The translations under genes were made by a program, and so were the position numbers. From contig CANPWO010000001.1 in the NCBI GenBank assembly GCA_947584535.1, positions 19,816 through 83,815 on the forward strand: a stretch of DNA of 64,000 bases. Direction: 5' to 3'. Positions 5,026 to 59,049 of this stretch are shown in pieces (the first letter of the stretch is position 1; the number at the start of each line of letters is the position of its first letter). The notes under the pieces were generated by a model. The model searched no databases, had not been told where the DNA came from, and saw nothing but the letters and a program-made list of their open reading frames with translations. The DNA comes from an uncultured Clostridia bacterium (GTDB taxonomy: Bacteria > Bacillota > Clostridia > TANB77 > CAG-465).

Positions 5026-5170
5026 AATTTTTTCTCCTTTGTTTATTCTACTATAATTATATACTAAAAGTTACTTTTAAACAATATTTTTAGTTAAAAA
5101 AAATAAATAAAAATGTCATTATTTACAAGTTATAATTAACGACATTTTTACCTATTAAAAATATAATTAG

Positions 5171-5829: not shown

Positions 5830-5861
5830 ATATATTCTCCTAATTAAATACCTTCTTAAAC

Positions 5862-6371: not shown

Positions 6372-6509
6372 AATTTATATAACCTCTATTTTTTTAATAT
6401 AATTATTTCATTTACTATTTTACTATAATAGCATTTAAAATTCAACTAATACAATTTTTTTATAAAAATAAAATGACACTAAAATTAATTAGCGTCATTT
6501 TATTTTTAC

Positions 6510-7265: not shown

Positions 7266-7467
7266 TTTTATTTCCTCCTTATTATCTTGTAAACATTTAT
7301 GTTTACAGCCTTTAATATTTTACATAACAATTATACTACATTTTTATAATTATGTCAAGTGATATAACTATATGATTACAAAAAAGTTATGACAAATAAT
7401 TATCATAACTGTCAACTATTTTATATATTTTTTAACTTTACTACTAATTGTATCTAATCAGAACAAA

Positions 7468-7509
7468 AGTGAATCTTCGATTCACTCCACTACAGCATAA
7501 GTTGTAGTG
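7468..7509 (-). ncRNA. two adjacent stem-loops 3' of tnpB (putative omega-RNA scaffold / right-end hairpins)
   Basis: AGTGAATC-ttc-GATTCACT (7468-7486, 8-bp stem) and CACTACA-gcataagt-TGTAGTG (7488-7509, 7-bp stem), 40-80 nt downstream of the tnpB stop. Confidence 0.35.
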
Positions 7510-7548
7510 TTCTTTATAAAGAGAATGTAGTCTTTAAGTTTTATACTT

Positions 7549-8817
7549 TTAGGCTACTCTTTTCTTTATTGGTCGTTGTTCTCGGCCCTTATCCATCGCA
7601 ATTTCTTGGTTTGGAATATAACTTTTTATATATTTTCTTAATATATTTAGACTTCCATTTATATCGGCATTTATTTCCTTTCCTTCTTCTGTTATAAATA
7701 GCCCTCTATATTTTCTTCTTTTTTTGTTATAATTTTCTTTTTTTACTTCTTCTTTATCTATCGCACTTACTCCTGATGTATATTTCTCACTTATTTTTAC
7801 TACCTCTATTCCTTCTAATTTTGCTTTGTATTCTATCTTTTTTACTAACTCTTCTAATGGTATCTGTACAAAGTCTTTGTTATAATCCATATTTTGCTTC
7901 ATATCTTTTAAATCTCCTATTACTATTTTTGAACATTTATTTTTTATTGCGTATTCTATTACCATTCTTGATACCTTATGCATAAATGTATTCATATAAT
8001 TCTTACGTTTTTCCCTTAACCTTTTTATTTGTTTTGTATCTTTATAATTTTTGCTTCCTACCATTTTCATTTTTATTTGTTGTAAGTGCTTTATTTTTTC
8101 ATTTATATACTTATTCTTGCTTTTTGCTTCTCTTCCTGATACAAGCATCATATCCATATTTTCTTTATTTGTACATGCTACTATATTATTTATCCCTAAG
8201 TCTATTGCCATTATATTTGTTGCTTTACTTGCTTCCTTTTCTTCTTTTTCATATATTATATTCATTTCTATTTCTTCTCCTTTGTTTTTTACCTTTATCA
8301 TTTTTATGCTTGAAATTAATATTTGCTTTTTTAATTTTCTTGGTATTAAAAAATTTAAACTCTTTACTTTATTCTTTTCTTGCATTTCTTTTGATATTGA
8401 TAATTTTATTTTATTTCCTTCTACTCTTACTGCATATTTTGTAAATACTATCTCTTGCACTTGTTTTTCTTTCTTGTATCTTGGATATTTTGGTTCTCCT
8501 TTTAATGATTTACTATCTTTTTCATATTTTTTCTTTAATGCTATATATGATTTGTAACTTCCTACCACACTCATTATGGCCTCTTGCAACATATGTGAAT
8601 GTAAATATTTTCCATGCCAGTTTTCCTGTCTATACTTTCTATATATTGGTGTTGTTATTATATTTATACTTTTTGTAACATCTATTTGTTCTTTTCCCTC
8701 TTTTATATCATACAACAACATATTCATTACTTTCTTTGTATGCCACTCTAAATCATTAATTATTTCTACTTGCTCTTTATTTGGATTTTTTACATTATAT
8801 TTTAAACTTAATTTCAA
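7549..8817 (-). CDS. tnpB: TnpB-like RNA-guided endonuclease (IS605 OrfB family)
   Basis: 422-aa ORF. RuvC-like motifs IMAIDLGINN, KIVIGDLKD and INADINGSLNILRKY. EKYTSGVSAID stands where many TnpBs carry a CxxC zinc finger. Confidence 0.85.
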   Translation of the reverse strand: MKLSLKYNVKNPNKEQVEIINDLEWHTKKVMNMLLYDIKEGKEQIDVTKSINIITTPIYRKYRQENWHGKYLHSHMLQEAIMSVVGSYKSYIALKKKYEKDSKSLKGEPKYPRYKKEKQVQEIVFTKYAVRVEGNKIKLSISKEMQEKNKVKSLNFLIPRKLKKQILISSIKMIKVKNKGEEIEMNIIYEKEEKEASKATNIMAIDLGINNIVACTNKENMDMMLVSGREAKSKNKYINEKIKHLQQIKMKMVGSKNYKDTKQIKRLREKRKNYMNTFMHKVSRMVIEYAIKNKCSKIVIGDLKDMKQNMDYNKDFVQIPLEELVKKIEYKAKLEGIEVVKISEKYTSGVSAIDKEEVKKENYNKKRRKYRGLFITEEGKEINADINGSLNILRKYIKSYIPNQEIAMDKGREQRPIKKRVA

Positions 8818-8969
8818 TTTATCACCTCTTTTCTTTTTTTACATTATATCAAACATATGTTTAAAAGTAAAGAGAAATGATTATATTTTTTATGTAAAAT
8901 TCCGACATTTTTCTACATTTATTTATCTAGTGTGTTTTTAATAATTAAGTATGACTTTCCCATTGTATA

Positions 8970-9004
8970 AAAAACTTAAGAGCTAACCTAAAAAGGAAAG
9001 CTCT
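8970..9004 (-). terminator. rho-independent terminator downstream of fba
   Basis: AGAGCT (8979-8984) pairs with AGCTCT (8999-9004). On the minus strand the stem is followed by TAAGTTTTTT. Confidence 0.45.
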
Positions 9005-9124
9005 CAAAAAATAATATTTATTTATCTACTTATGGTTTGCAAATAGATTTGGATATAAATACACTTAAGTATTCATATTATTATATATAATTATACTCTG
9101 AATTTATTATAATGTTAATATTTC

Positions 9125-10069
9125 TTATGCCTTGTTTTCACTTCCAAGCACATCTACAATTTTATGTTTTACCATATTTTTAACTGCATCTCTTGCTTTT
9201 GAAAGATATGTTCTAGGGTCAAATACACTTGGTTCATTTACAAATACTTCTCTTATATTAGCTGTCATTGCAAGACGAATATCGCTATCAATATTTATTT
9301 TACATACTGCCATTGTTGCAGCTTTTTTTAGCATTTCTTCAGGAACACCTTTTGCTCCTGGTATTTGTCCACCATATTCATTACACATTTTAACAAATTC
9401 TTGTGGTACAGAAGAAGCACCATGAAGTACAATTGGAAAGTTTGGTAATTTTTTTCCAACTTCTTCTAATATATCAAATCTAAGTTTTGCATCACCTTTA
9501 AACTTATATGCCCCATGACTTGTACCAATTGCAATTGCAAGAGAATCACAACCAGTCCTTTTAACAAATTCAACAGCTTCATCAGGATTTGTAAACATTG
9601 CATCACTATCTTTAACATTTACATCATCTTCTACTCCTGCAAGTTTTCCAAGTTCTGCCTCTACTACAACTCCTCTTTCATGTGCATAGTCGACAACTCT
9701 TTTTGTTAGTTCAACATTTTCTTCAAAACTATATTTTGAACCATCTATCATAACAGATGTAAAGCCACTATCTATACAGTCTTTGCAAGTTTCAAAGTCA
9801 GGTCCATGGTCTAAATGAAGTACAACTGGAATATCTTTTCCAGCTTTTTCATTACATTCAATTGCTGCCTCAACTAATTTTTTTAAATAAATTGGATTAG
9901 CATATTTTCTAGCACCAGCTGATACTTGCAAAATAACTGGTGAATTAGTCTCATTTGCTGCCTCCATTATTCCTTGTATTATTTCCATATTATTTACATT
10001 AAATGCACCTATTGCATACCCGCCTTTATATGCATCTTCAAACATTTTTTTAGTTGTTGTAAGTCCCAT
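9125..10069 (-). CDS. fba: class II fructose-1,6-bisphosphate aldolase
   Basis: 314 aa. GYAIGAFNVNNMEI, LHLDHG and AIGTSHGAYKF are typical class II FBA motifs. Confidence 0.95.
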   Translation of the reverse strand: MGLTTTKKMFEDAYKGGYAIGAFNVNNMEIIQGIMEAANETNSPVILQVSAGARKYANPIYLKKLVEAAIECNEKAGKDIPVVLHLDHGPDFETCKDCIDSGFTSVMIDGSKYSFEENVELTKRVVDYAHERGVVVEAELGKLAGVEDDVNVKDSDAMFTNPDEAVEFVKRTGCDSLAIAIGTSHGAYKFKGDAKLRFDILEEVGKKLPNFPIVLHGASSVPQEFVKMCNEYGGQIPGAKGVPEEMLKKAATMAVCKINIDSDIRLAMTANIREVFVNEPSVFDPRTYLSKARDAVKNMVKHKIVDVLGSENKA

Positions 10070-10075
10070 ATATAT

Positions 10076-11545
10076 TTACCCCTTTCTGTTACTATATAAA
10101 CTTCTTGTATATTGAAAATCTCTCTCATCAGTTGTATTTCTTTTTACATTTAATTTTTCTTCTACTTCTTTTACTCTTTTTTTTCTATTATCTCTTTCTG
10201 CCTCAATTTTTGCTACTTCATTCTCATCATTTGTAGCATTAAGTCTTGGATCATTTAAAATATTATCCCTTTTCTCCTCTTGTTCCTCTTGTAGTTTATC
10301 TGGCGTTTTTGAAGGTTCTTTTTCTGTTTTTGATGTCTCTATATCTTCGTATTTTATATCAGCCATAGCTTCAAGTGATTGCAATAATTCCTCAGCTTTA
10401 ATATAATTTCCTCTTTCTTCTGCTTCATAATATTGCTCAAGAATAACATCGGCATTTCTATCTATCGATGCATCTGCCTCATATGTTTGCTCATTACTTT
10501 CTTTTACATCTTGAACTAGTTTAACATCATTTTCTTTTTCAAGTGTATTAACTCTTTCACCAAGCTGTACATTGTGTTTTATTTCATAAGTATCTCCTAC
10601 TTCTTTACTTCTAAATCTTTCATCAGCTGCTCTTTCTTCTATACTTTTTTGTAATTCAATAGGATTAGGATAAATATTATGTATTTTTGCAGATATTTCT
10701 TTATATTCTTTTTGCAAAATATCCATTTGTGACATAAATTTTTCTGAAGACATAGTACTCGATCTTGTACTTAAATACGCAATATCTTCTGCTACATTTT
10801 CTCTTTTTACATATAGTTCATTTACTCTATCAAGTGACTCGTCATTCTTTTTAAGTATTGCGCGTTCATTTTTTCCTGATCTATATGCAAGTCCTTCCTC
10901 AAATTTCTTTATATCTTCATCATCACGTATAACTGATGTTTTAGCAATCCCCCTATAGCTTTTATCTATATTTTTTAAATACTTTTCATAGAGCACAAGT
11001 TTTGTTCCATTTTTATCTCCAACACTAATGTCACCAGTTGCAAGTTGATTATTTGGACCTTGTTCTTGTATCCCAAGTTTAAGGTTATAATAATCTTCAA
11101 GAACAGTCTTATACATTGCTTTATATACAACTGCTCTTAAATTTTCTTCACTTGACTCTCTTGCACCATTTTCTTGTTCTTTATCAACCTCTTTTTCTAT
11201 TTCATCCTTAGTTGCACTATCTACACCAATACCTGCACCTGATACCTCGCCTACAGCTTTAGATATTTCTCTTTGTTCTTGTTTCTTAATATCATCTATA
11301 TCTTTACCATCTATATCAGCTCTAATTCTTTCCATGGTTGTTGGCTCAAGATAGGCTCTTAGCTCCTTTTGAATATCTATACCATATTTTTTGCTATATG
11401 AAGCAAGTATCTCTTGCATAGCTGTATCTTCATATATATCTTTTACATTTTTTTGTAAATCATTTGATCTTGGTTTACCTGCCTCATCATATGCTTCTTT
11501 TACTAATTCTTGTAATTTATCTTTATTTTCTTCATATCTACTCAT
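10076..11545 (-). CDS. hypothetical Glu/Lys-rich, probably coiled-coil protein
   Basis: Long ORF. I place the start at the ATG at 11545 (MSRYEENK) because GGAGG lies 8 nt upstream. No catalytic motif recognised. Confidence 0.55.
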   Translation of the reverse strand: MSRYEENKDKLQELVKEAYDEAGKPRSNDLQKNVKDIYEDTAMQEILASYSKKYGIDIQKELRAYLEPTTMERIRADIDGKDIDDIKKQEQREISKAVGEVSGAGIGVDSATKDEIEKEVDKEQENGARESSEENLRAVVYKAMYKTVLEDYYNLKLGIQEQGPNNQLATGDISVGDKNGTKLVLYEKYLKNIDKSYRGIAKTSVIRDDEDIKKFEEGLAYRSGKNERAILKKNDESLDRVNELYVKRENVAEDIAYLSTRSSTMSSEKFMSQMDILQKEYKEISAKIHNIYPNPIELQKSIEERAADERFRSKEVGDTYEIKHNVQLGERVNTLEKENDVKLVQDVKESNEQTYEADASIDRNADVILEQYYEAEERGNYIKAEELLQSLEAMADIKYEDIETSKTEKEPSKTPDKLQEEQEEKRDNILNDPRLNATNDENEVAKIEAERDNRKKRVKEVEEKLNVKRNTTDERDFQYTRSLYSNRKG

Positions 11546-35255: not shown

Positions 35256-38200
35256 TTACCCCCTTTTTATATCTTTTAAGAATCCTATTTGAATTAAGTA
35301 ATTTAAATATCTATGTATATATTCTTCATTAATTATAGGCCATTCAAATCCCATACTTTTTAATAATTTAATAGTAAAGTCAGATTTTACTATAATATTT
35401 GGTTTATATTCTATTTCTTTGTTTTTATTTACATCTAATATTATACCATTAATTTGATTTGCTTTTTCAGGATCTCTACTAAAATCTGTTATAAGCTTTG
35501 TCATTTCTTCTTTTGTAATTTCTTGTAAATTAATTCCAAAACTCTTAAAAGCTTTTAAAGCATCTACCATTTGTACGTGCTTATGGTTAAATATGTGAAA
35601 TACTGAATATTTACTATTAGTTTTTGAAAGAGTTATAACTGCTTTCGCTGCAAAATCAATAGGAGTAAACTCTAAATAAAAGTCAAGTAAATTAGTAGGT
35701 ATTACATTTAATGTTATAAATGTTTTTAATCGATTAGCGAATGCATTTTCTTCAACATTTGGTTGAAACTTACCATCATACATTCTTCCTGTTAAATTAC
35801 CCATTCTCATTATTTTACCATTAAGTTTATTCTCTGCAATAGCTTCTAAAACATATTTTTCTCCCATAAATTTTGTAAAAGCATATACATTATCTAAGTT
35901 TTGTTTAATATATAAATTTTCTTCACAATACTTTGTATTTGGTAATATATTTACTTGTTCTACTTGACCAGTTTCAAGTATATTACCTGATACACTAAGT
36001 GTAGATATATGAATTAATTTTTTATTATTTTCTATACAAAATTTTATAATATTTTTTACTGCATATTCATTTACTTTTCTAAATTTTTCTATATTTCCAA
36101 AATGTCTAACATTGGCTGCTGAGTTAATAATGGTATCAACTTTACTTTTTACAATTTCATAGTCTACTTCATTATTAATTATTTTAGAAGAATTCATATC
36201 TCCTTGTATTATAACTATTCTTTTTCCAAATTCATTATCATATTTATTTCCAAAGAAGAAATTTAATCTTTGTTTTAATCTTTGCTCTGCTGTTACCCCA
36301 TTTTTAGTTCTTACTAAACAATAAATTGTTCCGGTTTCTTGTTTCATATATTCATCTAAAATATGTGCACCTAAAAAACCTGTAACTCCAGTAAGTAGTA
36401 CATTTCCTAATTTTTCATTATTACTTAGGCTTTCATCTATTTGATTATTCTTTAACAAGTTATCAATATTAGTATAATCTAATGTTTCTATCTCTTCAGA
36501 TATAGAGATATTTTTTCTTGTTTTATCAAATATACCACCTAATTGATTTATAGTTGGATTTTTATACAGTTCATTATATGTTAGTGAAATATTTTTTGAA
36601 ATAGCTTTTGTAACTAAGTCAATTGCAAGTAAAGAGTCTCCTCCTATTTCAAAAAAATTATCATCAGGTAAAATATCCTTCCTTTTTAATACATCACAAA
36701 ATAAATCATATATTTCTTTGTAAATACCAACATAATTAGTTTCTTTTTTTTCTAATACATTATATCTTTTAGGTATTAATTTCTCTATTTCGTTTTTATC
36801 TACTTTTCCGTTTTTATTAAGAGGTATATTAGATATTTTAAATATATACTTTGGTATCATATAATATGGTAGCTCTTTTTTCAAAAAATCTTTTATTTCG
36901 TCTACGTCCAAATTTAATATTGATGTATAAAGTAATATAATATCTTTACTTTCCCCATTATTAATAACTGTTACATAACAATCATTAATCTTTTTATTTT
37001 TTAATGCTGTATTTTTTATCTCATCTAATTCTATTCTAAAGCCTCTTATTTTTATCTGACTATCAATTCTGCCTGCAAATTTTACATTTCCATCTTGCAA
37101 AAAATACGCATTATCTCCTGTTTTATATGCTTTCATAGAATTATCAAATGGATCTTTTATAAAACTTTTTGCAGTTCTTATATCATCTTTAAAATATCCT
37201 TTTGCAACTCCATCACCACTAACTAGTAATTCGCCTTCTACAAATATTGGAAGTAACCTATATTTTTTATCAACAATATAGCATTTACTATTTGAAATTG
37301 GTTTTCCAATAGGAATACTATCAGTATATTTACTCTTTATATTAAAGCAACAAGAAAAAGTTGTATTTTCAGTAGGTCCATAACCATTTATTAATTGAAC
37401 ATTTTTACATCTATCTAAAAGCTTATTTACATGTTTTACTGAAAGCACATCTCCACCTATTAATAAAACTCTAAGGTTATTAAACATAGATACATTATAA
37501 TCAACCATTTTATTAAATAAAGGTGCTGTTAACCACATTACAGATATTTTACTTGCTATAATAAAATCTTCAAATGTACTAGGGTTTAGTAACTTTTCTT
37601 TTGATATAAGATATAAAGTTAATCCATTTAATAAAGCTCCCCAAATTTCTAATGTTGATGCATCAAAACCTATTGAACCAGTTTGTACTATTCTGTCACC
37701 ATCTTTAAATGATATATAATTTGTATTTTTTACAAGTCTAACTATATTACGATTTGTAACTTCAACACCTTTAGGTTCTCCTGTTGTTCCAGATGTATAC
37801 ATTATATAAACACTATCTTCTACTTTGTGTGATTTTTCTATTCTTCTAGTTTCAGATGCACTGTTAAGAATATCAGCATTTATATTTTTAGCTCCTTTTA
37901 AACTGCATTCATCAACATCTGTTATAATTAAAGAACTAGAAGAATTATTTATAATATAATTTATTCTATCTTTAGGATATGTTTTTTCTAAAGGTAAATA
38001 AATACAATTTGCTTTTAAAATTCCCAAAATAGTTATTATAATTTCTATAGATTTATCCATAAAAATACTAACTACACTTTGATCTTTAAGCTTTAATATA
38101 TTTATTATATAATGTGCAACTTTATCTGCTTTTTCATTTAATTCTTTATAAGTCATAGTTTTATTTTCAAAAACAAGTGCAATATTATCAGGAGTTTTTC

Positions 38201-39590
38201 TAACTTGTTCTTCAAAAAGTTCTATAACTGTTTTATCTTTAGGATATTCTTTATATGTATCGTTAAATTCATTAAGTATTTTACTTTCTTCTTCCCTACT
38301 AATTATCCTAATATTTTCTATATCAATATCTTTATTTTCTATAGCGTTTTCTATTATAGCTAGTAATCTTGTATGCAAATATTCTATTTCTATATCTTTA
38401 TATAAATCTGTTTTATAATCATAATTTATATTTAAAATACCTGTATCATCCATATCCATAATATGAATTTGAAGTTCATCTTCTAAAGAATTTGAAAACG
38501 CCCAACTTGTACTATATTTTTTTTCATCAACTATATTTGTTCTAGCATTTTGATATGAAAGTACTATATTATACAAATTACCTTTTATATCACTGTTTTG
38601 TCTAATACTTTCTAAAGTTTTCATATATGGATATTTTTGATGTCTAAATACACTTAAAGTATCTCTTGAAATTTTTTGTGTTAAGCTTAGGAAATTTTCG
38701 CCTTCTTCTAACTTTATCCTAAGTGGCAAAGTCGATACAAACATTCCAAGCATTTTTTTCTCTTTAAAATTAGCTCTGTTAAGTACTGGTGTACCAAGTA
38801 CAAAATCATTTTTATCCTTTATCCTATAAATATATGTTGAAAGTGCAGATAAAAACAACGCATAAGGTGATAGTCTATTTTCCTTGCAATAACTAATAAT
38901 ATTACTATTTATTTTTTCATCAAGTCTTACAGAATATCTTTTTGCTTTGTGTGAAGTTAAAGGTGTCTGTTCTTTTATTGATACAGTTTCATTTATTCCA
39001 TTTAAATAATCTTTCCAAAATTCTTCATCTTTTATATATTTATCAGAGTTTTTATACTCATTTTCACTTGCTATATATTCTAAATAACTTGGTAAATTTT
39101 CTACTTCTACATCCTCATTATAACTTTCAAGTACTTGTATAATATACGTACCAATTTTACTACATGACCATGCATCAGAAATTATATGGTGTATCCTCAT
39201 AAAAATACTACCTGTATTATTTGTGTATTTTAATATTTTAAAATCATATAGTTTACTATTTAATGAAAAAAGAGATTGTGAAGCTAAGCCATCAATATAT
39301 TCTCTAATTTCCTCATTAGATAATGATGACATATCAACTACTTCAATCTCCTCATATTTGTATTCTTCATAATATTGCATATATTCATTTTCTTGTTCTA
39401 CAAGTCTTGTTCTCATAGCAATATTTTTTTCTATTACTTCATTTATTGCTTTTTTGCACAAATCTATATTAAAATCTTTTTGTATGTTAATTAATCCAGT
39501 TATAACATTAACTGAACTATTCTCATTAAATTTTTCCATAAATAATATATTTTGTTGTGGGAACGTTAAATTGTACATTTTATTATCCAT
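35256..39590 (-). CDS. single-module nonribosomal peptide synthetase, C-A-T-R (terminal thioester reductase)
   Basis: C domain HHIISDAWS. A-domain cores YIMYTSGTTGEPKGV, NGYGPTE, YKTGD, GRIDSQIKIRGFRIEL and NGKVD. Carrier FFEIGGDSLLAI. Reductase NAD(P) motif LLTGVTGFLGAHIL. Start placed at ATG 39590 (MDNKMYNLTFPQQ), after a GAGAGG RBS. Confidence 0.9.
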   Translation of the reverse strand: MDNKMYNLTFPQQNILFMEKFNENSSVNVITGLINIQKDFNIDLCKKAINEVIEKNIAMRTRLVEQENEYMQYYEEYKYEEIEVVDMSSLSNEEIREYIDGLASQSLFSLNSKLYDFKILKYTNNTGSIFMRIHHIISDAWSCSKIGTYIIQVLESYNEDVEVENLPSYLEYIASENEYKNSDKYIKDEEFWKDYLNGINETVSIKEQTPLTSHKAKRYSVRLDEKINSNIISYCKENRLSPYALFLSALSTYIYRIKDKNDFVLGTPVLNRANFKEKKMLGMFVSTLPLRIKLEEGENFLSLTQKISRDTLSVFRHQKYPYMKTLESIRQNSDIKGNLYNIVLSYQNARTNIVDEKKYSTSWAFSNSLEDELQIHIMDMDDTGILNINYDYKTDLYKDIEIEYLHTRLLAIIENAIENKDIDIENIRIISREEESKILNEFNDTYKEYPKDKTVIELFEEQVRKTPDNIALVFENKTMTYKELNEKADKVAHYIINILKLKDQSVVSIFMDKSIEIIITILGILKANCIYLPLEKTYPKDRINYIINNSSSSLIITDVDECSLKGAKNINADILNSASETRRIEKSHKVEDSVYIMYTSGTTGEPKGVEVTNRNIVRLVKNTNYISFKDGDRIVQTGSIGFDASTLEIWGALLNGLTLYLISKEKLLNPSTFEDFIIASKISVMWLTAPLFNKMVDYNVSMFNNLRVLLIGGDVLSVKHVNKLLDRCKNVQLINGYGPTENTTFSCCFNIKSKYTDSIPIGKPISNSKCYIVDKKYRLLPIFVEGELLVSGDGVAKGYFKDDIRTAKSFIKDPFDNSMKAYKTGDNAYFLQDGNVKFAGRIDSQIKIRGFRIELDEIKNTALKNKKINDCYVTVINNGESKDIILLYTSILNLDVDEIKDFLKKELPYYMIPKYIFKISNIPLNKNGKVDKNEIEKLIPKRYNVLEKKETNYVGIYKEIYDLFCDVLKRKDILPDDNFFEIGGDSLLAIDLVTKAISKNISLTYNELYKNPTINQLGGIFDKTRKNISISEEIETLDYTNIDNLLKNNQIDESLSNNEKLGNVLLTGVTGFLGAHILDEYMKQETGTIYCLVRTKNGVTAEQRLKQRLNFFFGNKYDNEFGKRIVIIQGDMNSSKIINNEVDYEIVKSKVDTIINSAANVRHFGNIEKFRKVNEYAVKNIIKFCIENNKKLIHISTLSVSGNILETGQVEQVNILPNTKYCEENLYIKQNLDNVYAFTKFMGEKYVLEAIAENKLNGKIMRMGNLTGRMYDGKFQPNVEENAFANRLKTFITLNVIPTNLLDFYLEFTPIDFAAKAVITLSKTNSKYSVFHIFNHKHVQMVDALKAFKSFGINLQEITKEEMTKLITDFSRDPEKANQINGIILDVNKNKEIEYKPNIIVKSDFTIKLLKSMGFEWPIINEEYIHRYLNYLIQIGFLKDIKRG

Positions 39591-39835
39591 TTTAAAACAA
39601 CCTCTCATATATAACTTCAACATCTTATTTAATATATAGTATATCAAAAACAAAAATTAAAAGCAATATGTAAAAGTATAATTTACAACGTTTTTTTACA
39701 TATTATAACTTATTTATACAAAACAAATTTACTATGTTACTTCTACACAATTTCTATATTTTTTTCTAATACAACTATTGACAAACAAAAAATACTATGT
39801 TATTATATATAAGTATTTAAAATTATTATTTACTT

Positions 39836-50137: not shown

Positions 50138-51181
50138 TTATTTATTAATACTTTCTATGTATTTTTTTCTTAACTGACCACACGCTGCATCAATATCTGA
50201 GCCAAGCTCACGTCTAACAGTTGTTACAATTCCACATGAATTTAATGTATTCATAAACTTTTCAACAGACTTTTCAGTTGCTTTTTTATACTGTCCATTT
50301 TTTATCTCATTTACAGGAATTAAATTTACATGTGCTATCATTCCCCTTAGTAATTTAGCAAGAGCTATAGCATCTTCATAACTATCATTTTCACCATAAA
50401 TTAGAGCATATTCAAAACTTATTCTTCTTTTTGTAATTTTTATATATTCCTTACAAGCAGTTAATAACTCTTCAATACTATATTTATTTGCTATTGGCAT
50501 TATTTCTTTTCTTTTTTCATCAGTTGTTGCGTGAAGTGATATAGAAAGAGTACATTGTATATTTTCCTCTGCAAGTTTATATATCATAGGTACTATTCCA
50601 CAAGTTGACAAGCTTATATGTCTTGCACCTATTCCAAGTCCATATGGGTTATTTATTAATCTTATTGACTTAACTACATTTTCATAGTTATCAAGTGGTT
50701 CTCCTATTCCCATATATACTACATTTGATATTCTTTCATTTGTATATCTTTGCACTGTTAAAATTTGTCCTTCTATTTCACTTGCAAGTAAATGTCTTTC
50801 AAAGCCTTCTTTAGTAGATGCACAAAATTTACATCCCATTTTACAACCTACTTGTGTTGAAACACATAATGTATTTCCATGATGATACCTCATAAATACT
50901 GATTCAATTGCAGTGTTATCATCTAGTTTAATTAAAAATTTCATTGTACCATCTTTTTTTGATTTCTGACACTCTATTATTTCTAAATTTGGTATATATG
51001 CCATATCCTTTAATTTATCTCGAAGTGTCTTTGATATATCACTCATTTCATCAAAACTTGTAACGCCAATTCTATGCAACCATTTAAAAATTTGACGTGC
51101 ATGGAATTTTTTTTCGCCAATACTTTCTATATATTTTTCTAATTCTTCCATTGCTAATTCATTTATATTTATCTTATCCAT
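50138..51181 (-). CDS. rlmN: 23S rRNA/tRNA (adenine-C2)-methyltransferase, radical SAM
   Basis: 347 aa. VSTQVGCKMGCKFCAS cluster motif and a C-terminal Cys (DIDAACGQL). Confidence 0.95.
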   Translation of the reverse strand: MDKININELAMEELEKYIESIGEKKFHARQIFKWLHRIGVTSFDEMSDISKTLRDKLKDMAYIPNLEIIECQKSKKDGTMKFLIKLDDNTAIESVFMRYHHGNTLCVSTQVGCKMGCKFCASTKEGFERHLLASEIEGQILTVQRYTNERISNVVYMGIGEPLDNYENVVKSIRLINNPYGLGIGARHISLSTCGIVPMIYKLAEENIQCTLSISLHATTDEKRKEIMPIANKYSIEELLTACKEYIKITKRRISFEYALIYGENDSYEDAIALAKLLRGMIAHVNLIPVNEIKNGQYKKATEKSVEKFMNTLNSCGIVTTVRRELGSDIDAACGQLRKKYIESINK

Positions 51182-51235
51182 CTTATTCTCCTAAATTTCT
51201 TAATATATTTTACTACATAATTAATTATTATGCAA

Positions 51236-51272
51236 GAAAAGTACCTATAGATAATTTCTATAAGTACTTTTC
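51236..51272. other. 16-bp-stem inverted repeat upstream of rlmN
   Basis: GAAAAGTACCTATAGA-taatt-TCTATAAGTACTTTTC (one mismatch). No flanking T-run on either strand. Confidence 0.4.
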
Positions 51273-51456
51273 AATGTATATGAGTAATATTCATTAGCAT
51301 TCAATTTTAAAATATTATAAAATATTATGCATTTTCAAAAGCTTTAATTTGATTATTTAATTAGATTATTTATAATTAGCTTTTTTTATTTAAAATTAAT
51401 CCTTTTATAATTAAATATTTTAGTTTGCATAATATTGTGTGGCTGGATTTTCTCCT

Positions 51457-51476
51457 GCGGGATTTCATCCCGCTTG
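51457..51476 (-). other. conserved hairpin element, copy H2 (downstream of the TR-like segment)
   Basis: Plus strand GCGGGAT-ttc-ATCCCGC followed by TTG. Minus-strand sense is CAAGCGGGATGAAATCCCGC. A near-identical 19-20-mer recurs at 51727-51745. Confidence 0.5.
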
Positions 51477-51583
51477 CTTTTTTCTTTTTTTCGCTTTTCT
51501 TTTTTGCTTTTTCTCTTTTTGATAGGATTTACGTTGCTTTGGTATTTTTATTCAACATTTTCCTTAAACAGTTGCTTATCTTT

Positions 51584-51646
51584 AGTACCACTTCTATTGT
51601 AATTGCCTCCTCGTTTCATGTACGGATTCGTCGTGTTAGAGAAATT
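51584..51646 (-). other. DGR template-repeat (TR)-like segment
   Basis: 63 nt aligning without gaps to 51936-51998 (48/63 identical). 13 of 15 mismatches are at positions where this copy has A in the coding (minus) sense. In the gene's frame it reads AAT TTC TCT AAC ACG ACG AAT CCG TAC ATG AAA CGA GGA GGC AAT TAC AAT AGA AGT GGT ACT, which is rich in AAY codons. Confidence 0.6.
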
Positions 51647-51726
51647 GCAACATAATCCCTGTATTATGTTAATAATTTAAATAATTATTAATTAATACCT
51701 TGATTAAAACCCACGACAAAGCGCAC

Positions 51727-51745
51727 GCAGGATTTCATCCGCTTG
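51727..51745 (-). other. conserved hairpin element, copy H1 (about 105 nt downstream of the adhesin stop codon)
   Basis: Plus strand GCAGGAT-ttc-ATCCGC followed by TTG. Minus-strand sense is CAAGCGGATGAAATCCTGC. The stem has one bulge. Confidence 0.45.
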
Positions 51746-51851
51746 ACTCTTGCCGTTCCCTTGCCAAAATATTGAGTTTATCTTAGTTATTATTATTTAT
51801 CTAATTAACTACTTTATCACAAAAAAGTGTTCAGTGTATCAGTGCCACATT

Positions 51852-51998
51852 TTAAAGTGAGACCCACACCGCGCGAAAACTGCCGAAACTGTTCGCATAG
51901 CCAAAGTCGGGGAAGAAGTAGAACAGACCCGCGCTAGCACCACTATTATTGTAACTGCCTCCACGTAGCAAGAACGGAGCCAACGTGTAAGAGAAATA
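51852..51998 (-). other. DGR variable-repeat (VR)-like 3' end of the adhesin gene
   Basis: Encodes ...YFSYTLAPFLLRGGSYNNSGASAGLFYFFPDFGYANSFGSFRAVWVSL-stop inside an FGE/C-type-lectin-like domain. The segment 51852-51935 is roughly 54% G+C by hand count, in an otherwise AT-rich window. Confidence 0.6.
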
Positions 51999-54782
51999 TG
52001 AAGCGTCGCCAAACCAACTTGTATGTTCAGTTCCGGAAGTGGATGTCTCCCATATTGCTTCTCCTTTTCTTTTACTGTTTGTTGCATCGTTATAATTTAT
52101 ATTTTCATCATAATTATCACCTTCGTATACAGATACGTATTTTGTTGAATTTCCGTTGTTATTTTTACTTGTTTCGTCTACTAGTGATTGTCCGTATTTT
52201 GTTAAATTACTAGTTCCACCTTTTTGATATCCTGCTGTAAATTCAGATGCTCCTCCACTCATATCATATATTCCGTATATGTTTCCTGTTGTTGATGCTT
52301 TCTGTCCTTCTGGTGTGTTATATGTATTTGATGAGCTTGCTCCATATCCTGTTTTTGTTCCACTACTATTAACTTTGTTTTGCTGTACCTCTACTCCATT
52401 TCTTCCATATTTACTTTGTGCTAGGTAAGCTACTGCTCCCCATTCACTATTCTTCATTTGATGTGTGTCTACTTTTGAAGAAGAAAATCCGTATGGATTA
52501 CCACTTTGGTTTAGATTTTTACATAGTGTAAATACTTCTCCTATTTTGATATCTCCATATGAACTTTGTCCTGGTACAAATTTTGGATATGTTTGTTTTG
52601 ATTGACTTTCTATTCCAGTTCCTTTGCTTGCTTCGTATTTTGCTACCCATATTCCTGTTAACTCTTCGTCCCATCCACCATTTGCAAATTGTGTGTCTGT
52701 TTCATCTGTGAATGCTGAATGTACTATATAATCTTCTGGTAAGTCTTGCTCAGCTTCATTTTCGTCTTCATACTTATCACTTGTTCCTTTTAAGAATATT
52801 ATATCTATTTGATTTGCTGTACTTGTTCCAGGATTTGTTATCTTGTATGCATATCTTGGTATCCACACCCACTGGCTTCCATCTGCTGTTTCTGCATTTG
52901 CCCAATGGCTTGTTGTATTATCTGTTCCAAATTCTTCTTTGCTTTCTTTGTATGCATACCATTCTGGGTCACTTGTTGTTGTTTTTTCTGATGTTCCATC
53001 TTCTTTAAATTTTATTGCCTTCATTCCAGGCATTATATTTGGTGGATTTACTTTTGATACTCCATCTTCTGTATTTCCATTTGTTCCATATTCTCCTTTT
53101 GCAATTTCTGCAAGTGTTGCAGTTTTATCATTTACTACTATCTCATATCCCTCAGGTACATTTACTTCAGCTTGTTCTTTAAATTGTGTACTTCCTGTTA
53201 CTGCTCCATCATAAAAGTTTGCTATAAATGTATCAGTTCCATTATCTACTGCTGTATTTGTTGCTGTTATTGTTGGCTTAGTTGTATCTACTGGTGCACT
53301 CTCATTTCCTATTATTAATGTCTTACTTGCATCTGCTCCTGAATTGTATACGCAATTATTTCCTGTTACTGCTCCATCTCTTATATTTATTGTTCCTTTT
53401 GCAAATTCTATTGCATTTCCATTTGTTGCTTCTATTTTTCCATTTGATACTAATGTTCCATTTGTTCTTATTCCATTAGCTCCTTTTATAGAACTATATT
53501 CTGAAATAATTACACTTGCTTCTGTCGAATTACTTTTTATTACATAGCCACTATCTCCTGTTGAAGTTATTATTCCAGCGCTTATATTAACAGTTCCTGT
53601 ATTATTTATTACTGGTTCATTTGAAGAAGAGTTTATAAGCGCTACTAAAAAACTTGAACTACCTCCACCACCAATAGGGCTACCTGGCGCATAACCTCCG
53701 ATATTTACTTCGTCTACATTATTTATTACTGAACCTTTTGCATTAGAATTTATTGTGATATGCCCTATACTAATATTACCATTATTTTCTATTGCATCTG
53801 AATTAGAATTCAATGTAATCGATGACGTATCATCACTATTAAAACTAAAATATCCAATATTTTTTATTGCAACAGTATTATCAGATTTCGTATCTATTGT
53901 TGCATTGCCATATATATAAAATTTTCCATTACTATCATTATCTACTGCTAAATTTGATGTTGAGCTTATATTTGTATTTGCAATTGAGATTTCAGAAGTA
54001 TTGTATATTGTAGGGTTATTATTAGACTCTGATGTTATTTTTCCACCTGATATTATACACTTTCCAGTTTCATTATATACTGCCGAATTTAATGTTGAGC
54101 TTATATTTGTTGTATTATTTATTATTATTTGACTATCTTTATATGTAGAACTATCACAATTATTATATATTGTAGGACTACTATCTGACTGTGATGTTAT
54201 TTCTCCACCAGATATTGTACACTTTCCAGCTTCATTATTATATATTGCTGAATTTGATGTTGAACTTACATTTGCATTTGTTATTATGACTTCGTCATTA
54301 TTATATATCGTAGGATTATTATTAGACTCTGATGTTATTTCTCCACCAGTTATTTCACACTTTCCAGCTTCATTATATACTGCCGAATTCAATGTTGAAC
54401 TTATATTTGTTGTACCATTTATTAACATTTGATTATATATTAAACCATTACAATTATTATATATTGTAGGACTACTATCTGACTGTGATGTTATTGTTCC
54501 ACCAGTTATTGTGCACTTTCCAAATTCATCATTATATACTGCTGAATTTAATGTTGAACTTACATTTGCATTTGTTATTATGACTTCGCCATTATTATAT
54601 ATTGTAGGGTTATTATTAGACTCTGATGTTATTTCTCCACCAGTTATTTCACACTTTCCATCCTCATTATATATTGCTGAATTTGATGTTGAGTTTATAT
54701 TTGCATTTGTTATTGTGATTTCGGAATCACTATATATTATTGTAGGGCTACTATCTGACTGTGATGTTATCGTTCCACCGTT
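51852..54782 (-). CDS. C-terminal portion of a split giant surface protein: beta-helix-like Asn/Ser/Thr repeats plus an FGE-sulfatase / C-type-lectin-like domain
   Basis: The frame is open from 54782. The first ATG is at 54428. Repeats are of the type NxSSTxNSAxYNxxGKCxIxGGxITSxSxxxPTIYN. The C-terminal part carries WVWIPRYAYKI, IWVAKYE, YGIYDMSGGASEFT and LRGGSYNN...GSFRAV. Confidence 0.8.
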   Translation of the reverse strand, partial: NGGTITSQSDSSPTIIYSDSEITITNANINSTSNSAIYNEDGKCEITGGEITSESNNNPTIYNNGEVIITNANVSSTLNSAVYNDEFGKCTITGGTITSQSDSSPTIYNNCNGLIYNQMLINGTTNISSTLNSAVYNEAGKCEITGGEITSESNNNPTIYNNDEVIITNANVSSTSNSAIYNNEAGKCTISGGEITSQSDSSPTIYNNCDSSTYKDSQIIINNTTNISSTLNSAVYNETGKCIISGGKITSESNNNPTIYNTSEISIANTNISSTSNLAVDNDSNGKFYIYGNATIDTKSDNTVAIKNIGYFSFNSDDTSSITLNSNSDAIENNGNISIGHITINSNAKGSVINNVDEVNIGGYAPGSPIGGGGSSSFLVALINSSSNEPVINNTGTVNISAGIITSTGDSGYVIKSNSTEASVIISEYSSIKGANGIRTNGTLVSNGKIEATNGNAIEFAKGTINIRDGAVTGNNCVYNSGADASKTLIIGNESAPVDTTKPTITATNTAVDNGTDTFIANFYDGAVTGSTQFKEQAEVNVPEGYEIVVNDKTATLAEIAKGEYGTNGNTEDGVSKVNPPNIMPGMKAIKFKEDGTSEKTTTSDPEWYAYKESKEEFGTDNTTSHWANAETADGSQWVWIPRYAYKITNPGTSTANQIDIIFLKGTSDKYEDENEAEQDLPEDYIVHSAFTDETDTQFANGGWDEELTGIWVAKYEASKGTGIESQSKQTYPKFVPGQSSYGDIKIGEVFTLCKNLNQSGNPYGFSSSKVDTHQMKNSEWGAVAYLAQSKYGRNGVEVQQNKVNSSGTKTGYGASSSNTYNTPEGQKASTTGNIYGIYDMSGGASEFTAGYQKGGTSNLTKYGQSLVDETSKNNNGNSTKYVSVYEGDNYDENINYNDATNSKRKGEAIWETSTSGTEHTSWFGDASYFSYTLAPFLLRGGSYNNSGASAGLFYFFPDFGYANSFGSFRAVWVSL

Positions 54783-54790
54783 CTATACTT
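53890..54790 (-). repeat. in-frame tandem coding repeats (about 280-295-nt super-repeat, each made of two ~37-50-aa sub-repeats)
   Basis: TATTGTAGGACTACTATCTGACTGTGATGTTAT recurs near 54168, 54463 and 54739. TAGACTCTGATGTTATTTCTCCACC recurs near 54026, 54316 and 54617. Confidence 0.8.
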
Positions 54791-57700
54791 AACTTATTAT
54801 CATAAATTCCAGCCTCTATTGCACTCTCTTTATTTGTTGAAATAGATAAATTATACAAACTAAATAAATTATTTGTACCATAACTTTCTAAACTTACTGC
54901 ACCAGTATTAGTAGAAATTTCTTTAAATTCCATTTCTCCATTTTCAATCTTTATATTACAATTAGAAGCTTGATTCACTATAGCCATAATAGAAGCATTA
55001 TACAATATCTTGTGATTACATAAATCTATATCGTAATTTTTATCATCTTCAAATAATTCAATAAAACTACCATCATTAATAGTCGTATCATGTAATAATT
55101 CCAATTTAAATTCACCATCTTCATAAGTAACATACTCACAATAATAAATCAATGCTTCATCAAATGTATAAAAACTTTCCATTTCTTCTGAACTATTTAT
55201 ATCAACAATTCTTGCTACTGGTTTTATATGTTCTAATGTTGCTGTATTTTCATTTACAACTATTTCATACATATCTGGAACAACTACTGTTTCTTTATTT
55301 TTAAACTGTATTTTTCCTGTTACCGAACCATCATAAAAATTCACCTTAAATTTATCATTTCCATTGTCTACACCTGTTTCTGTTACATTTATTATTGGTG
55401 CTTCTTTCTTTACTCCTTCATCACTATTATTTCCAAAAGTTAATGTTTTTTCTACGTCATTTCCTGAATTAAATACTCCATTTACTCCTGTTATACTTCC
55501 TCCTGTTATTTCTATTTCTCCTTTTGCAAATTCTATTGCATTTTGCTTTAAACTTTTTATTGTCCCTTCTGACATTGTTATTTTTCCATTGTTTTTTATT
55601 GCATTATAACCCTCTACATCTCCTCCTGTTATATTTACATTTCCTTGTGTTGAACTATTATTTATTCCGTGACTATTATTCTCATCATTTCCTGTTGATT
55701 TTATTGTTCCATTTGCTACAGTTAATGTTTTTGTATTATCTATTGCATCTTGATTTGATGTTATTATTCCACTTGTATTTATTGTTAATGTATTTGCATT
55801 ATATATTGCATTTTCACCTGTACTTGATATAGTTCCTTCTCCTACTATCTCCATATATCCTTCATTTGTTATTGTTGCTTTATCTCCTTGGTCATTTTTT
55901 ACTGTATATGTTCCTAGATTTAGTTTTGCATATTTGTTATTTGCTAGTGTTGCTGTTTTATTTGTTATATCTTTTAATACTACTACTTCATTATATGAGC
56001 TTGAACTTCCAGTTACAGCATTAAATGCTTCTTGAAGTGTTGCATATTTTATTGCACCTATTTGTGCTACTGCTTCTACTACATTTACTGTATATTCTGC
56101 TTTCATTGCTTCATTATCTTTTGATGTTACTGTTATTTTTGCTTGACCTACTCCTTTTATTGTTACTGTTGCATTTAATTCGTTACCTTCTACTGTTGCT
56201 ACTCCTTCATTATCTGTTGTCCATGTTACTTCTTTATTTGATGCATTCTCTGGTTCTACTGTTGCTGTAAGTTGTATTGTTTTTGTATCTTCAATAAACA
56301 CAGTATCTTCTGTTTTATCTAATGTTACTTTTGTTACATCTATCTTCTTTGTTTTTGCTGTTATTTCTCCTTTTGTATATTTATGACCTGTTGATATTGT
56401 TACTGTTACTTCTATATCATATGTTGTATATGGTTCTAGTCCTTTTATTGTATATGTTCCACCATATGATTGTTTACCTTCCCCTATATCAGATGTTGTT
56501 AATGTTTCTGTTTTCCAATTTTGTTGTGTTCCGTTTTCTTTGTATTTTATTTCTATACTGCTTAATGTTCCAAATAATGTTGATGTTGTTATTTCTACTG
56601 GTATTGTATCTGATGTTGTTGTGTCTGGTGTAGCTTCAAGTGATATTGGTTCTATTACATGTACTTGACATGTATCACTTGCCTGAGGATTATCTTGTGA
56701 TGTTACTGTTACTGTTGTGTCTCCTATTTGTTTTGTTGTTACTGTCCCTCCATCTACTTCTGCTATATCTGTTTGACTACTTTGCCATGTTAAACTTTTA
56801 TTTGTTGCGTTTGTTGGGTCTATTGTTGCTGTTAATTCTCCTGTATCTCCTAAATATACATTTAATGGTTTTGGACTTAATGTTACGTTATTTACTGGTA
56901 TTTTCAGTGTTGTACCAGTTAAATCAGTTATTGATACTTTATGCCCATTTGCATATTGACTTTCACTTGCTATTTCTACTTCTACTTGTATATTATATTT
57001 TGTTACATCTTTTAAGTTATCTATTGTTATTATTCCTTCATATTCTGTTTGTCCTGTTACATCTTGTGTTACTTCTTTTTTTGACCAAGTTGCTTCATCT
57101 TCTCTTTTATACATTATTGTTATCTTAGATAATGTTCCATGTTTAGTTGATGTTGTTACTTGTACTGGTATTGTGCTTGATGTTGTTGCACTTACGCTTG
57201 CTTTTAATGATATTGGTTCTAATACTTTTACACTACATTGTGCTTGTTTTTCCTTATCATCATTTGCTTTTGCTGTTATTGTTGTATTACCTACATCTTT
57301 TGTTGTTATTACTCCTTCGCTTACTATTGCCTTGTTCTGATCACTACTTTCCCATATTACTGTTTTATCTGATGCATCTTCTGGCAATACTGTTGCTGTT
57401 AATTTTCCTGTTTCTCCTAAATACACATTTAATGTATCTGGTGCTACTGATATGCTTGTTACTGGTATCCATTTTGGTTCTGCTTGTAGTGTTACTTCCT
57501 TTTGACATGATTTATCCTTTAATGTTGCTACTACTTTTATTTCAAATATCTTTCTTGGTTCTAATCCATTTATTACATAGTCATTTGTGTTATATTCTGT
57601 TTTATTTACGTCTATTGATGGATCTGTTATCCAATCTTCTTTACCTTTTTCTCTATGTTTTATTTCTATCTTATCTATCTGATTATATGTTGTATTTGCT

Positions 57701-58992
57701 GATATTTTTAATGTTGCTTTTGTTCCTCTTGCTTCTGTTACTTCTGCACTTAACTCTAATGGGTCTAATACTTCTACTTGACAAGTTACACTTTTTGTTA
57801 AATATTTTGCTGTTATTGTTGCACTTCCTACTTCTTTTGCTGTTATATTTCCTTCTTGGTCTACTCCTACTTTTGCATCATCACTTGTTTCCCATGTTAA
57901 TGTTCCTTCTCTTACATTTCCATTTTCTACTATTGCTTGTAATTTACCTTCTTGTCCTTTTCTTAATTGCAATGTTTGCTTATCTAGTGTTATTTTTGTT
58001 TTATCTATTACACTTACACTACATACTTCTGATGTTAAGTTTCCATATTCTCCTTTTGCTATTATCTTTGCTGTTCCTATATCTCTTCCTGTTACTTCTC
58101 CTGTTTGTGTTAAATCTACTGCATTATCTGGGCTTTGACTTTCTACTTCCCATGATACATCTTGGTTATCTGCTGTCTCAGGTGTTATTATTGCTCTTAA
58201 CTTAGCTGGCTCATCTAAGCCAAGTACTACACTACTTGGGTCTATTGTTATTTTTTCTACTTTTATATAATCTCCTACATTTACTTTTATTGTTACTTTC
58301 TTTTCTATTTCTGTTCCATCTTCTGCTGTTACTTTTGCTGTTAGTATTGCTACTCCATCACTTATTCCTTGTATATCTACTGTGTTTTCTTTTTCTTCTA
58401 TTATTCTTGCTTTTGTTGGCTCATCTATTTCAAAATCTACTTGACTATCTATATCTGGTAATACTGTTGCATATATTCTTTCTTTTTGACTTATCTTTAA
58501 ACTTACTTCCTCTGTACTTAATACTAGTACTTCTCCTTCATTTAATACATTTATCCCTACTTCTTTTGCCCATTCTTGTTGCTCTTCACTTAAAAAATTA
58601 TCTCTGTTATCTATATATATCTTCCCATCTGCTACAAATACTTTTCCTTCGTATTCTGTTCCTACTATACTTGGCATGATAGAAGCGAGACTGTTATTTT
58701 CACCCTCGTTTACTATTTTTCCTTTATATATTATATTTCCTTCTTTTGTTATATTCATCTTATCTGTATAGTATCCTTTTGTATTTGATACATTATCAAA
58801 CAAGGCACTTGAGTAAAAATTATTATACTCATCTTTTAATGCTGTTAAATCTGTTTTTACCTTAGTTTCATTTGCTCTTGATATTGGATTATTACCTGTT
58901 ATTGACAAGATTACAGCGCTCGCCAATATAATCATTACTATTATTGTTATAATCAATACTAGTAATGATATTCCATTATTTCTTTTTTTCAT
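54751..58992 (-). CDS. N-terminal portion of the split giant surface protein: pilin-like signal/anchor, Big_2 and Fn3-like array, beta-helix-like module
   Basis: MKKRNNGISLLVLIITIIVMIILASAVILSITGNNP resembles a prepilin-type N-terminus that lacks Glu5. There are at least 5 Big_2-like units (for example VTSISVAPDTLNVYLGETGKLTATVLPEDASDKTVIWESSD) alternating with Fn3-like units. Start placed at ATG 58992, after a GAGGAAAAG RBS. Confidence 0.8.
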   Translation of the reverse strand: MKKRNNGISLLVLIITIIVMIILASAVILSITGNNPISRANETKVKTDLTALKDEYNNFYSSALFDNVSNTKGYYTDKMNITKEGNIIYKGKIVNEGENNSLASIMPSIVGTEYEGKVFVADGKIYIDNRDNFLSEEQQEWAKEVGINVLNEGEVLVLSTEEVSLKISQKERIYATVLPDIDSQVDFEIDEPTKARIIEEKENTVDIQGISDGVAILTAKVTAEDGTEIEKKVTIKVNVGDYIKVEKITIDPSSVVLGLDEPAKLRAIITPETADNQDVSWEVESQSPDNAVDLTQTGEVTGRDIGTAKIIAKGEYGNLTSEVCSVSVIDKTKITLDKQTLQLRKGQEGKLQAIVENGNVREGTLTWETSDDAKVGVDQEGNITAKEVGSATITAKYLTKSVTCQVEVLDPLELSAEVTEARGTKATLKISANTTYNQIDKIEIKHREKGKEDWITDPSIDVNKTEYNTNDYVINGLEPRKIFEIKVVATLKDKSCQKEVTLQAEPKWIPVTSISVAPDTLNVYLGETGKLTATVLPEDASDKTVIWESSDQNKAIVSEGVITTKDVGNTTITAKANDDKEKQAQCSVKVLEPISLKASVSATTSSTIPVQVTTSTKHGTLSKITIMYKREDEATWSKKEVTQDVTGQTEYEGIITIDNLKDVTKYNIQVEVEIASESQYANGHKVSITDLTGTTLKIPVNNVTLSPKPLNVYLGDTGELTATIDPTNATNKSLTWQSSQTDIAEVDGGTVTTKQIGDTTVTVTSQDNPQASDTCQVHVIEPISLEATPDTTTSDTIPVEITTSTLFGTLSSIEIKYKENGTQQNWKTETLTTSDIGEGKQSYGGTYTIKGLEPYTTYDIEVTVTISTGHKYTKGEITAKTKKIDVTKVTLDKTEDTVFIEDTKTIQLTATVEPENASNKEVTWTTDNEGVATVEGNELNATVTIKGVGQAKITVTSKDNEAMKAEYTVNVVEAVAQIGAIKYATLQEAFNAVTGSSSSYNEVVVLKDITNKTATLANNKYAKLNLGTYTVKNDQGDKATITNEGYMEIVGEGTISSTGENAIYNANTLTINTSGIITSNQDAIDNTKTLTVANGTIKSTGNDENNSHGINNSSTQGNVNITGGDVEGYNAIKNNGKITMSEGTIKSLKQNAIEFAKGEIEITGGSITGVNGVFNSGNDVEKTLTFGNNSDEGVKKEAPIINVTETGVDNGNDKFKVNFYDGSVTGKIQFKNKETVVVPDMYEIVVNENTATLEHIKPVARIVDINSSEEMESFYTFDEALIYYCEYVTYEDGEFKLELLHDTTINDGSFIELFEDDKNYDIDLCNHKILYNASIMAIVNQASNCNIKIENGEMEFKEISTNTGAVSLESYGTNNLFSLYNLSISTNKESAIEAGIYDNKLSIERWNDNITVR

Positions 58993-59049
58993 GAATATCA
59001 CTTTTCCTCTCAACACACATATATAATTACATATTTAATATTTAAATAA

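Follow-up and report, generated by a model that had tools for sequence, protein, structure and literature searches.

A diversity-generating retroelement footprint at the end of a giant Clostridia adhesin, with a probably orphaned and truncated template copy beside it

A canonical diversity-generating retroelement (DGR) requires a reverse transcriptase (RT) together with homology between the 3′ ends of its template repeat (TR) and variable repeat (VR). The DGRs of BPP-1 Mtd, Treponema denticola TvpA and Thermus aquaticus TaqVP have adenine-specific TR-to-VR differences, an AAY-rich template, and a VR in the ligand-binding face of a C-terminal C-type-lectin (CLec)/FGE fold of a surface protein. 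Efficient homing in Bordetella phage BPP-1 depends on the IMH and on a hairpin next to it (PMC3240598). Remote, non-adjacent targets have been described, for example in Treponema and Lineage 4, and avd, TR and brt carried on a plasmid are reported to act in trans (Wu et al. 2018, PMC5758913). DGR surveys begin from the RT, so TR/VR relics that have no RT go uncounted.

The locus described here, at the 3′ end of a giant adhesin gene of an uncultured gut Clostridia bacterium, is like the Mtd, TvpA and TaqVP DGRs in its adenine-specific differences, its AAY-rich template and the placement of its VR, with TaqVP as the best structural match. Unlike them, it has no RT or Avd within the at least 67 kb searched, its apparent TR is of half length, 3′ IMH/IMH* homology is absent, and no hairpin directly follows the VR. 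The lack of an RT near the target is shared with the remote targets of Wu et al. 2018 (PMC5758913); those, however, are VRs that match a TR beside the RT, whereas here a TR-like copy lies beside the target. The end of the target carries a genuine DGR footprint, and the locus is a known kind of system in a degenerate state, not a new one.

The window, which is the whole stretch of 64,000 nt (64 kb) that was analysed, has 27% G+C and the ordinary gene set of a spore-forming Clostridia bacterium. Pfam scans of its ORFs found SpoIVA, YabQ, NrdD, pyruvate kinase and an ftsK-def-fmt ... rlmN-PP2C-PASTA kinase block, in which the giant adhesin is sited between fmt and rlmN. The genes and domains around the target are as follows.

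54751..59016 (−): proximal reading frame of the adhesin, 1421 aa, with Big_2 and fn3 domains
51852..54782 (−): distal reading frame of the same adhesin and target of diversification, open from 54782, first ATG at 54428 (858 aa)
51852..52910 (−): C-terminal FGE-sulfatase/C-type-lectin-fold domain, 352 aa, from an AlphaFold2 model, Foldseek and profile matches
50138..51181 (−): rlmN, the next gene downstream of the target, bounding a 670-nt spacer

The RlmN_N and Radical_SAM domains of the last of these agree with the initial annotation, which had placed rlmN downstream of the adhesin. The spacer holds no plausible ORF, and no known RNA family was found by Rfam in 51100-52100. The initial annotation had also described the target as split by an upstream frameshift, which is located near 54760-54782: the TITGG.ITS.S...PTIYNN repeats of the proximal frame carry on in the distal frame, as TITGG(T/E)ITS(Q/E)S...PTIYNN, and are followed there by the CLec domain. 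At the junction, within the adhesin repeat array (window 54751-54785, minus strand), the sequence reads 'ata gaa c ggt gga': 4 nt stand in the place that a single codon has in the repeats. Since the frameshift lies outside a homopolymer tract, phase variation by slippage is unlikely. It is common to all four assemblies, namely the window and ERZ27249419, ERZ27059885 and ERZ27249416.

The last 352 aa of the target were modelled with AlphaFold2 (37 homologs; pLDDT 83.5, pTM 0.90). The best Foldseek match in the PDB was TaqVP (5vf4, E 1.3e-7), the DGR variable protein of Thermus aquaticus, followed by PvdO, PorK, TvpA (2y3c) and EgtB, mostly FGE-sulfatase/C-type-lectin folds. The sequence profile of the domain matches 5vf4 and pFGE 1y4j. 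The CLec/FGE fold that had been assigned to the C-terminal domain is borne out by the model, the TaqVP match and the profile matches together.

The putative repeats divide into three segments.

51932..51998 (−): 5′ part of the VR, still matched by the template copy, encoding YFSYTLAPFLLRGGSYNNSGAS; ungapped match to 51580-51646
51855..51931 (−): 3′ part of the VR, whose template is absent from the window, encoding AGLFYFFPDFGYANSFGSFRAVWVSL; coding-strand A 0.12-0.15, G+C 0.53-0.57
51580..51646 (−): putative truncated TR copy in the spacer, which would read NFSNTTNPYMKRGGNYNRSGTK and correspond to the first ~66 nt of a 140-144-nt family TR

The VR spans ~145 nt (about 51855-52000) in the last 49 codons of the target ORF, and so lies at the 3′ end of that ORF, in the C-type-lectin/FGE fold. 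The last 150 nt of the gene have a coding-strand A content of 0.147 (window mean 0.42, sd 0.063) and a G+C content of 0.53 (window mean 0.27, sd 0.053), and these two values are the extremes of the 64-kb window. The G+C-rich gene end that had been pointed out from a hand count was confirmed, at 0.53-0.57 over the last 60-90 nt. In the 3′ half of the VR (AGLFYFFPDFGYANSFGSFRAV), NNY codons (TTC, CCC, GAC, TTT, TAT, TTC) stand where the TRs of related phages have AAY.

The initial annotation had aligned 51936-51998 with 51584-51646 on the minus strand (offset 352) at 48/63 identities, and had placed 13 of the 15 mismatches at an A of the spacer copy. Both counts were reproduced, with 13/24 A sites but only 2/39 non-A sites changed in this 63-nt core (Fisher p=1.6e-5). 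The gapless match can be drawn out to a 67-nt pair, 51998-51932 in the gene and 51646-51580 in the spacer (minus strand), in which 15/17 mismatches fall at template A and the changed sites comprise 15/27 template A versus 2/40 non-A. An adenine-tolerant Smith-Waterman alignment returned 51645-51580 against 51997-51932, likewise gapless, with significant extension on neither side. By these counts the DGR-type, adenine-specific signature of the pair is genuine: the two copies differ almost only at template adenines, over 66 of the ~145 nt of the VR. Where a template A is changed, the VR has T at 8 sites, G at 4 and C at 3, and C/T differences do not occur. At non-A sites the VR and the spacer copy are 95% identical, but the flanks of both are barely alignable. 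The A-to-N pattern of the template matches exactly two places in the window, which are the two members of the pair, and gave 0 matches in 100 shuffles.

At the 3′ side, homology stops at 51580/51932 in the adenine-tolerant alignment, 77 nt short of the VR end, so that 3′ TR/VR homology (IMH/IMH*) was not found. This accords with the earlier remark that no IMH-type 3′ end is evident; the weak homology that had been read over the next 12 nt did not hold, similarity there being no better than chance. Towards the 3′ end of the pair, exact matches run to ~8 nt at most, and the 77 nt at the 3′ end of the VR match nowhere in the spacer in local alignments, adenine-tolerant ones included. An extension of the homology into the A-rich tract 51482-51531, allowing gaps and adenine tolerance, scored 42 against 25 +/- 3.6 and was rejected, the signal being mostly a 25-nt hairpin repeat. 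No significant BPP-1-type inverted repeat was detected right after the VR in a DNA fold of 51800-51900 (z=+0.37).

Homologs of the target domain number >8000 and come mostly from uncultured gut Clostridia, often behind a prepilin-like N-terminus. Three IMG/VR phage contigs (L042, L043 and L044) carry intact cassettes, ordered RT, TR and target, with a homologous domain (33-36% identity). These were used as positive controls for the scans and as the yardstick for a full family TR.

L043, cassette 8479-10927: TR 9535-9678, VR 10773-10916, 144 nt; mismatches at A 19/19
L042, cassette 4212-6790: TR 5361-5500, VR 6640-6779, 140 nt; mismatches at A 20/20
L044, cassette 7278-9781: TR 8426-8502, VR 9705-9781 (cut by the contig end), 77 nt; mismatches at A 10/10

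Summed over the three cassettes, 49/49 mismatches are at A and 0/269 non-A sites are changed, which shows that DGRs diversify the target-domain family in relatives. Translated, the phage TRs give NSANSNFPNSSNPVFHRGGNYNNDNAGLAYFNNNTGNANSNNGFRTC and closely similar peptides, with the pattern NF.N..NP...RGGNYN, and the spacer copy (NFSNTTNPYMKRGGNYNRSGTK) has Asn (AAY) at the same five positions. L042 and L043 differ from the present locus in their complete 140-144-nt TRs, placed directly after the RT; in L044, the contig ends within the pair. The fraction of A sites changed here (56%) is within the 48-61% range of the three intact same-family DGRs, whereas non-A drift is 2/40 here versus 0/269 in them. 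In the A-tolerant scan, intact DGRs score 67-125 and the background at the loci of 33 relatives is <=23; the window pair scores ~46, a figure derived arithmetically from its match and mismatch counts on the scale of the scan, without a separate run. From the Asn positions, the substitution pattern and the identity at non-A sites, we conclude that the spacer copy in all likelihood is, or was, a TR, of which it covers only the 5′ half.

Three further observations were made on phage and related contigs. L045 has the same RT and target as the three cassettes, and its contig stops before the VR. L043 has a complete ORF of 757 aa whose N-terminal part contains both the CLec domain and the VR, so that the VR is internal and not C-terminal. 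For L041, which encodes a related 987-aa ORF, an RT is absent from the 5.7-kb contig.

The A-tolerant scan found no local TR near the 33 chromosomal relatives. A 555-aa subgroup from gut Clostridia (P0020-P0119; L010 10001-11674), with a prepilin-like N-terminus, comprises dozens of DGR-type VR variants. It is hypervariable in its last 55 residues, where ...FPAV..PFS.RGG..W.GEGAGLF.F.R..G......GFRSV is conserved and the variable positions are scattered. As neither RT nor TR was found within 10 kb of these genes, the subgroup must rely on a distant DGR, and trans service is evidently normal in the target-domain family; the 555-aa relatives fit the class of remote targets (PMC5758913). Another chromosomal target is found in the Clostridia MAG HGM13618 (contig CAAEBC010000072; L028), where our RT HMM detected a 44-aa fragment of a DGR RT C-terminus (INSWHGHASHCNSYKLQQKIL, E 3.7e-5) at 3770-3919 (−). 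The fragment is 184 nt upstream of a 1244-aa pilin-like/CLec target homolog, near which a TR was not found. Both there and at the present locus, a chromosomal target of this family is accompanied by no more than a relic of DGR machinery; in HGM13618 the RT C-terminal fragment is kept and a TR was not found, while here half a TR is kept and an RT was not found. The HGM13618 locus thus has the look of another DGR of the family that decayed independently. An RT remnant beside a target homolog suggests that RT loss next to such targets happened elsewhere and that decay recurs.

The remainder of the spacer bears on the origin of the TR copy and contains three elements.

51505..51575 (−): flank immediately past the 3′ end of the TR copy, homologous to the sequence after the gene of the paralog P0001 (L004 6843-6912)
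51457..51481 (−): G+C-rich hairpin element with a perfect 7-bp stem (51457-51473) and loop GAA; repeat of 51727-51751; fold z = -4.4
51705..51766 (−): terminator-like stem-loop past the target gene, followed by GGGTTTT and holding a degenerate hairpin copy (51727-51751); its fold alone is not significant

P0001 (64% identical) was also present in the samples that gave the window (L004). The 70 nt that follow the TR copy are ~83% identical to the sequence just past the P0001 stop codon (local alignment 81.5 versus 27.1 +/- 4.5 for shuffles, z about 12). Pairwise local alignments with shuffle controls were used here, as MAFFT, given both copies and P0001 together, aligned the AT-rich DNA poorly. 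At four positions, which include family-conserved Tyr and Phe codons, the spacer copy has A where the VR and P0001 both have T, and this argues against simple decay of a gene copy. In DNA fold tests, the hairpin at 51457-51473, downstream of the TR copy, is the only significant one. The 25-nt hairpin element recurs after each copy (51751-51727 and 51481-51457) at an offset of 270, not 352. Together with the homology to the P0001 flank, this difference in offset suggests that the TR is a duplicate of the gene 3′ end plus flank that then suffered an internal loss of ~80-130 nt. The flank homology points, on sequence grounds, to an origin as a gene-end copy and to an internal deletion of the 3′ half of the TR.

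The paralogous giant-adhesin locus in L004 (1-7646; also in L005) is itself fragmented, with ORFs of 1428, 51, 386 and 403 aa. At its end is the CLec domain P0001, which is far less A-depleted (0.27), and an IS200-type Y1 transposase comes after it. On the plus strand of the window, 51457-51520 comprises a perfect hairpin, GCGGGATTTCATCCCGC, and then a long T-rich run. It scores as an intrinsic terminator, and no plus-strand gene precedes it. A promoter-like site is also present at 51349-51376 (+), and the two could delimit a short antisense or orphan transcript.

The RT search used an HMM of the three family DGR RTs against every six-frame segment of the window of >=30 aa, with filters off, and gave no match at E<=10. 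The only YxDD motif in a real ORF, at 4053, is in a 1439-aa NPCBM / F5_F8_type_C protein, where an RT-like context is absent. Pfam scans found no RVT family in any sizeable window ORF and no Avd or HRDC-type accessory family in window ORFs >=100 aa. These searches uphold the earlier statement that the window has no RT or Avd. In the 3.4 kb past the right end of the window, which carry FtsK, RsmD-like and other genes, there is no RT either.

The VR and TR are identical in three other assemblies of near-identical strains, in which the kinase gene has 2-4 SNPs relative to the window and which may share one study or host population. A more divergent strain, in samples ERZ27249248 and ERR10663695, differs by about 1.7% in def-fmt. 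No close allele of the target was found among 5.8 billion protein clusters. Scans for a second TR/VR copy gave 0 A-to-N matches in GTDB representatives, IMG/VR and JGI metagenomes; the species is absent from the genome set (best 38% identity), so these negatives are weak for the present genome. The 90% cluster of the 858-aa target (window 51852-54428) has no members besides the window protein and its representative, a 50-aa JGI fragment (P0131) that looks unrelated; this is probably a clustering artefact. Within the adhesin, every difference from the other assemblies falls in the Big_2 repeats at 57600-58460 (−), a pattern that points to recombination among repeats or collapse in assembly and not to point divergence.

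We hold, with moderate confidence, that the locus is an orphaned, truncated DGR remnant. On this account, the CLec-fold domain of a giant Big_2/fn3 surface protein would have borne the ~145-nt VR, which was presumably rewritten from a TR by adenine-mutagenic retrohoming. The TR itself would have arisen as a duplicate of the gene 3′ end and its downstream flank, ~290 nt beyond the stop codon. Homing would then have held TR and VR near-identical at non-A positions while their flanks diverged; the 95% identity at these positions between barely alignable flanks indicates a transfer of information after the duplication, as in retrohoming. A later internal deletion may have taken the 3′ half of the TR, together with whatever served as IMH* 3′ homology for the start of homing. 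The RT, and Avd if there was one, would be lost or elsewhere, and the target ORF would have been frameshifted and have accumulated a few ordinary substitutions. We infer that the spacer copy was a working template, that the events took this order and that the locus is now inactive. The orphaned state has points against it: the frameshift could be bypassed, trans service appears normal in the family, as the 555-aa group has no RT or TR within 10 kb, and the requirement for 3′ homology was established in another lineage, that of BPP-1 (PMC3240598). The initial annotation had spoken of a canonical DGR signature, of which the adenine-specific pattern stands and the word canonical is an overstatement, RT and 3′ TR/VR homology not having been found in the searched DNA. 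It had also left the locus as either orphaned or serviced in trans; absent 3′ homology, non-A drift, the frameshift and the invariant VR favour the former, though not decisively.

Service in trans would take one of two forms. A remote DGR (RT, possibly Avd, and its own full-length TR) may still diversify the target, with the local 66-nt copy as a dead duplicate. We regard this as a serious rival, if the less likely reading: remote targets are documented (PMC5758913), hypervariable chromosomal relatives have no RT or TR within 10 kb, and the 3′ half of the VR is clearly A-mutagenised while its local template is absent. Against it, one genome would have to carry two nearly identical TR copies, the reading frame of the target is broken by the frameshift, the VR and TR are invariant in the three assemblies, and the A-to-N scans of the genome, viral and JGI collections, weak as they are for an absent species, returned no second copy. 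Alternatively, the short local TR could be the working template of an RT encoded far away, with a non-canonical 3′ homing boundary. A promoter-like site lies just upstream of the TR copy (51691-51663, minus strand), TR and VR are much more similar than their flanks, and avd, TR and brt are reported to act in trans from a plasmid (PMC5758913). Such a layout is nevertheless improbable, and less probable than any reading discussed here except chance: 3′ homology is absent past 51580/51932, with a longest exact run of ~8 nt; the 77 nt at the 3′ end of the VR are diversified yet lie outside the local template; the pair has 2 non-A mismatches where intact relatives have 0/269; and a significant hairpin right after the VR is missing.

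Two further readings give the spacer copy no template role. It might be a fossil gene 3′ end, left by a tandem duplication in its original A-rich state, with the expressed copy altered by a remote DGR or by selection. The homology of the post-copy flank to the post-gene flank of P0001 and the hairpin element duplicated with the expected offset speak for a gene end, and the gene body itself is 45% A, so AAY richness alone is not TR-specific. We still think this quite unlikely, because the copy has A against T in both VR and paralog at four positions, conserved Tyr and Phe codons included, because its Asn positions coincide with those of the phage TRs, and because a 95% non-A match between barely alignable flanks needs information transfer after the duplication. 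The mismatch spectrum given above (T, G and C opposite A, no C/T differences) is also not that of AT-drift. AT-drift of a pseudogene copy was itself considered and rejected: 8/15 A-site differences are A/T transversions, C-to-T changes are none, and A stands at sites where the two paralogs share T. An artefact of chance or selection, with no retroelement involved, could appeal to the A-poor 3′ ends that all family members have to some degree, undiversified-looking ones included (L004 0.27, L007 0.30). It is very improbable given an adenine bias of p=1.6e-5, an A-to-N pattern for which 0 chance matches are expected, and the arithmetic estimate of ~46 for the pair score against <=23 in the loci of 33 relatives.

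As an orphaned remnant, the locus would be a dated-looking snapshot of the death of a DGR, in which the template is truncated, the VR frozen and the target frameshifted, and it hints at how a TR may originate, by duplication of a gene 3′ end with its flank. It also shows a very large Clostridia family of pilin- or adhesin-linked CLec domains to be a DGR target family, in which phage cassettes are intact and the chromosomal copies of some lineages are DGR-type hypervariable with no RT within 10 kb. If true, a local template served by a remote RT would widen the known DGR architectures; the template of such a split DGR would travel with the target and not with the enzyme, a layout that RT-anchored DGR finders miss by design.

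Two other genes of the window were noted in passing. A TnpB-type protein with OrfB_IS605 and Cas12f1-like TNB domains is encoded at 7549-8817 (−), and no neighbouring Y1 transposase ORF was noted. At 35256-39653 (−), an NRPS-like single-module protein (condensation, adenylation, carrier and terminal reductase) adjoins a 7TM-PAS histidine kinase.
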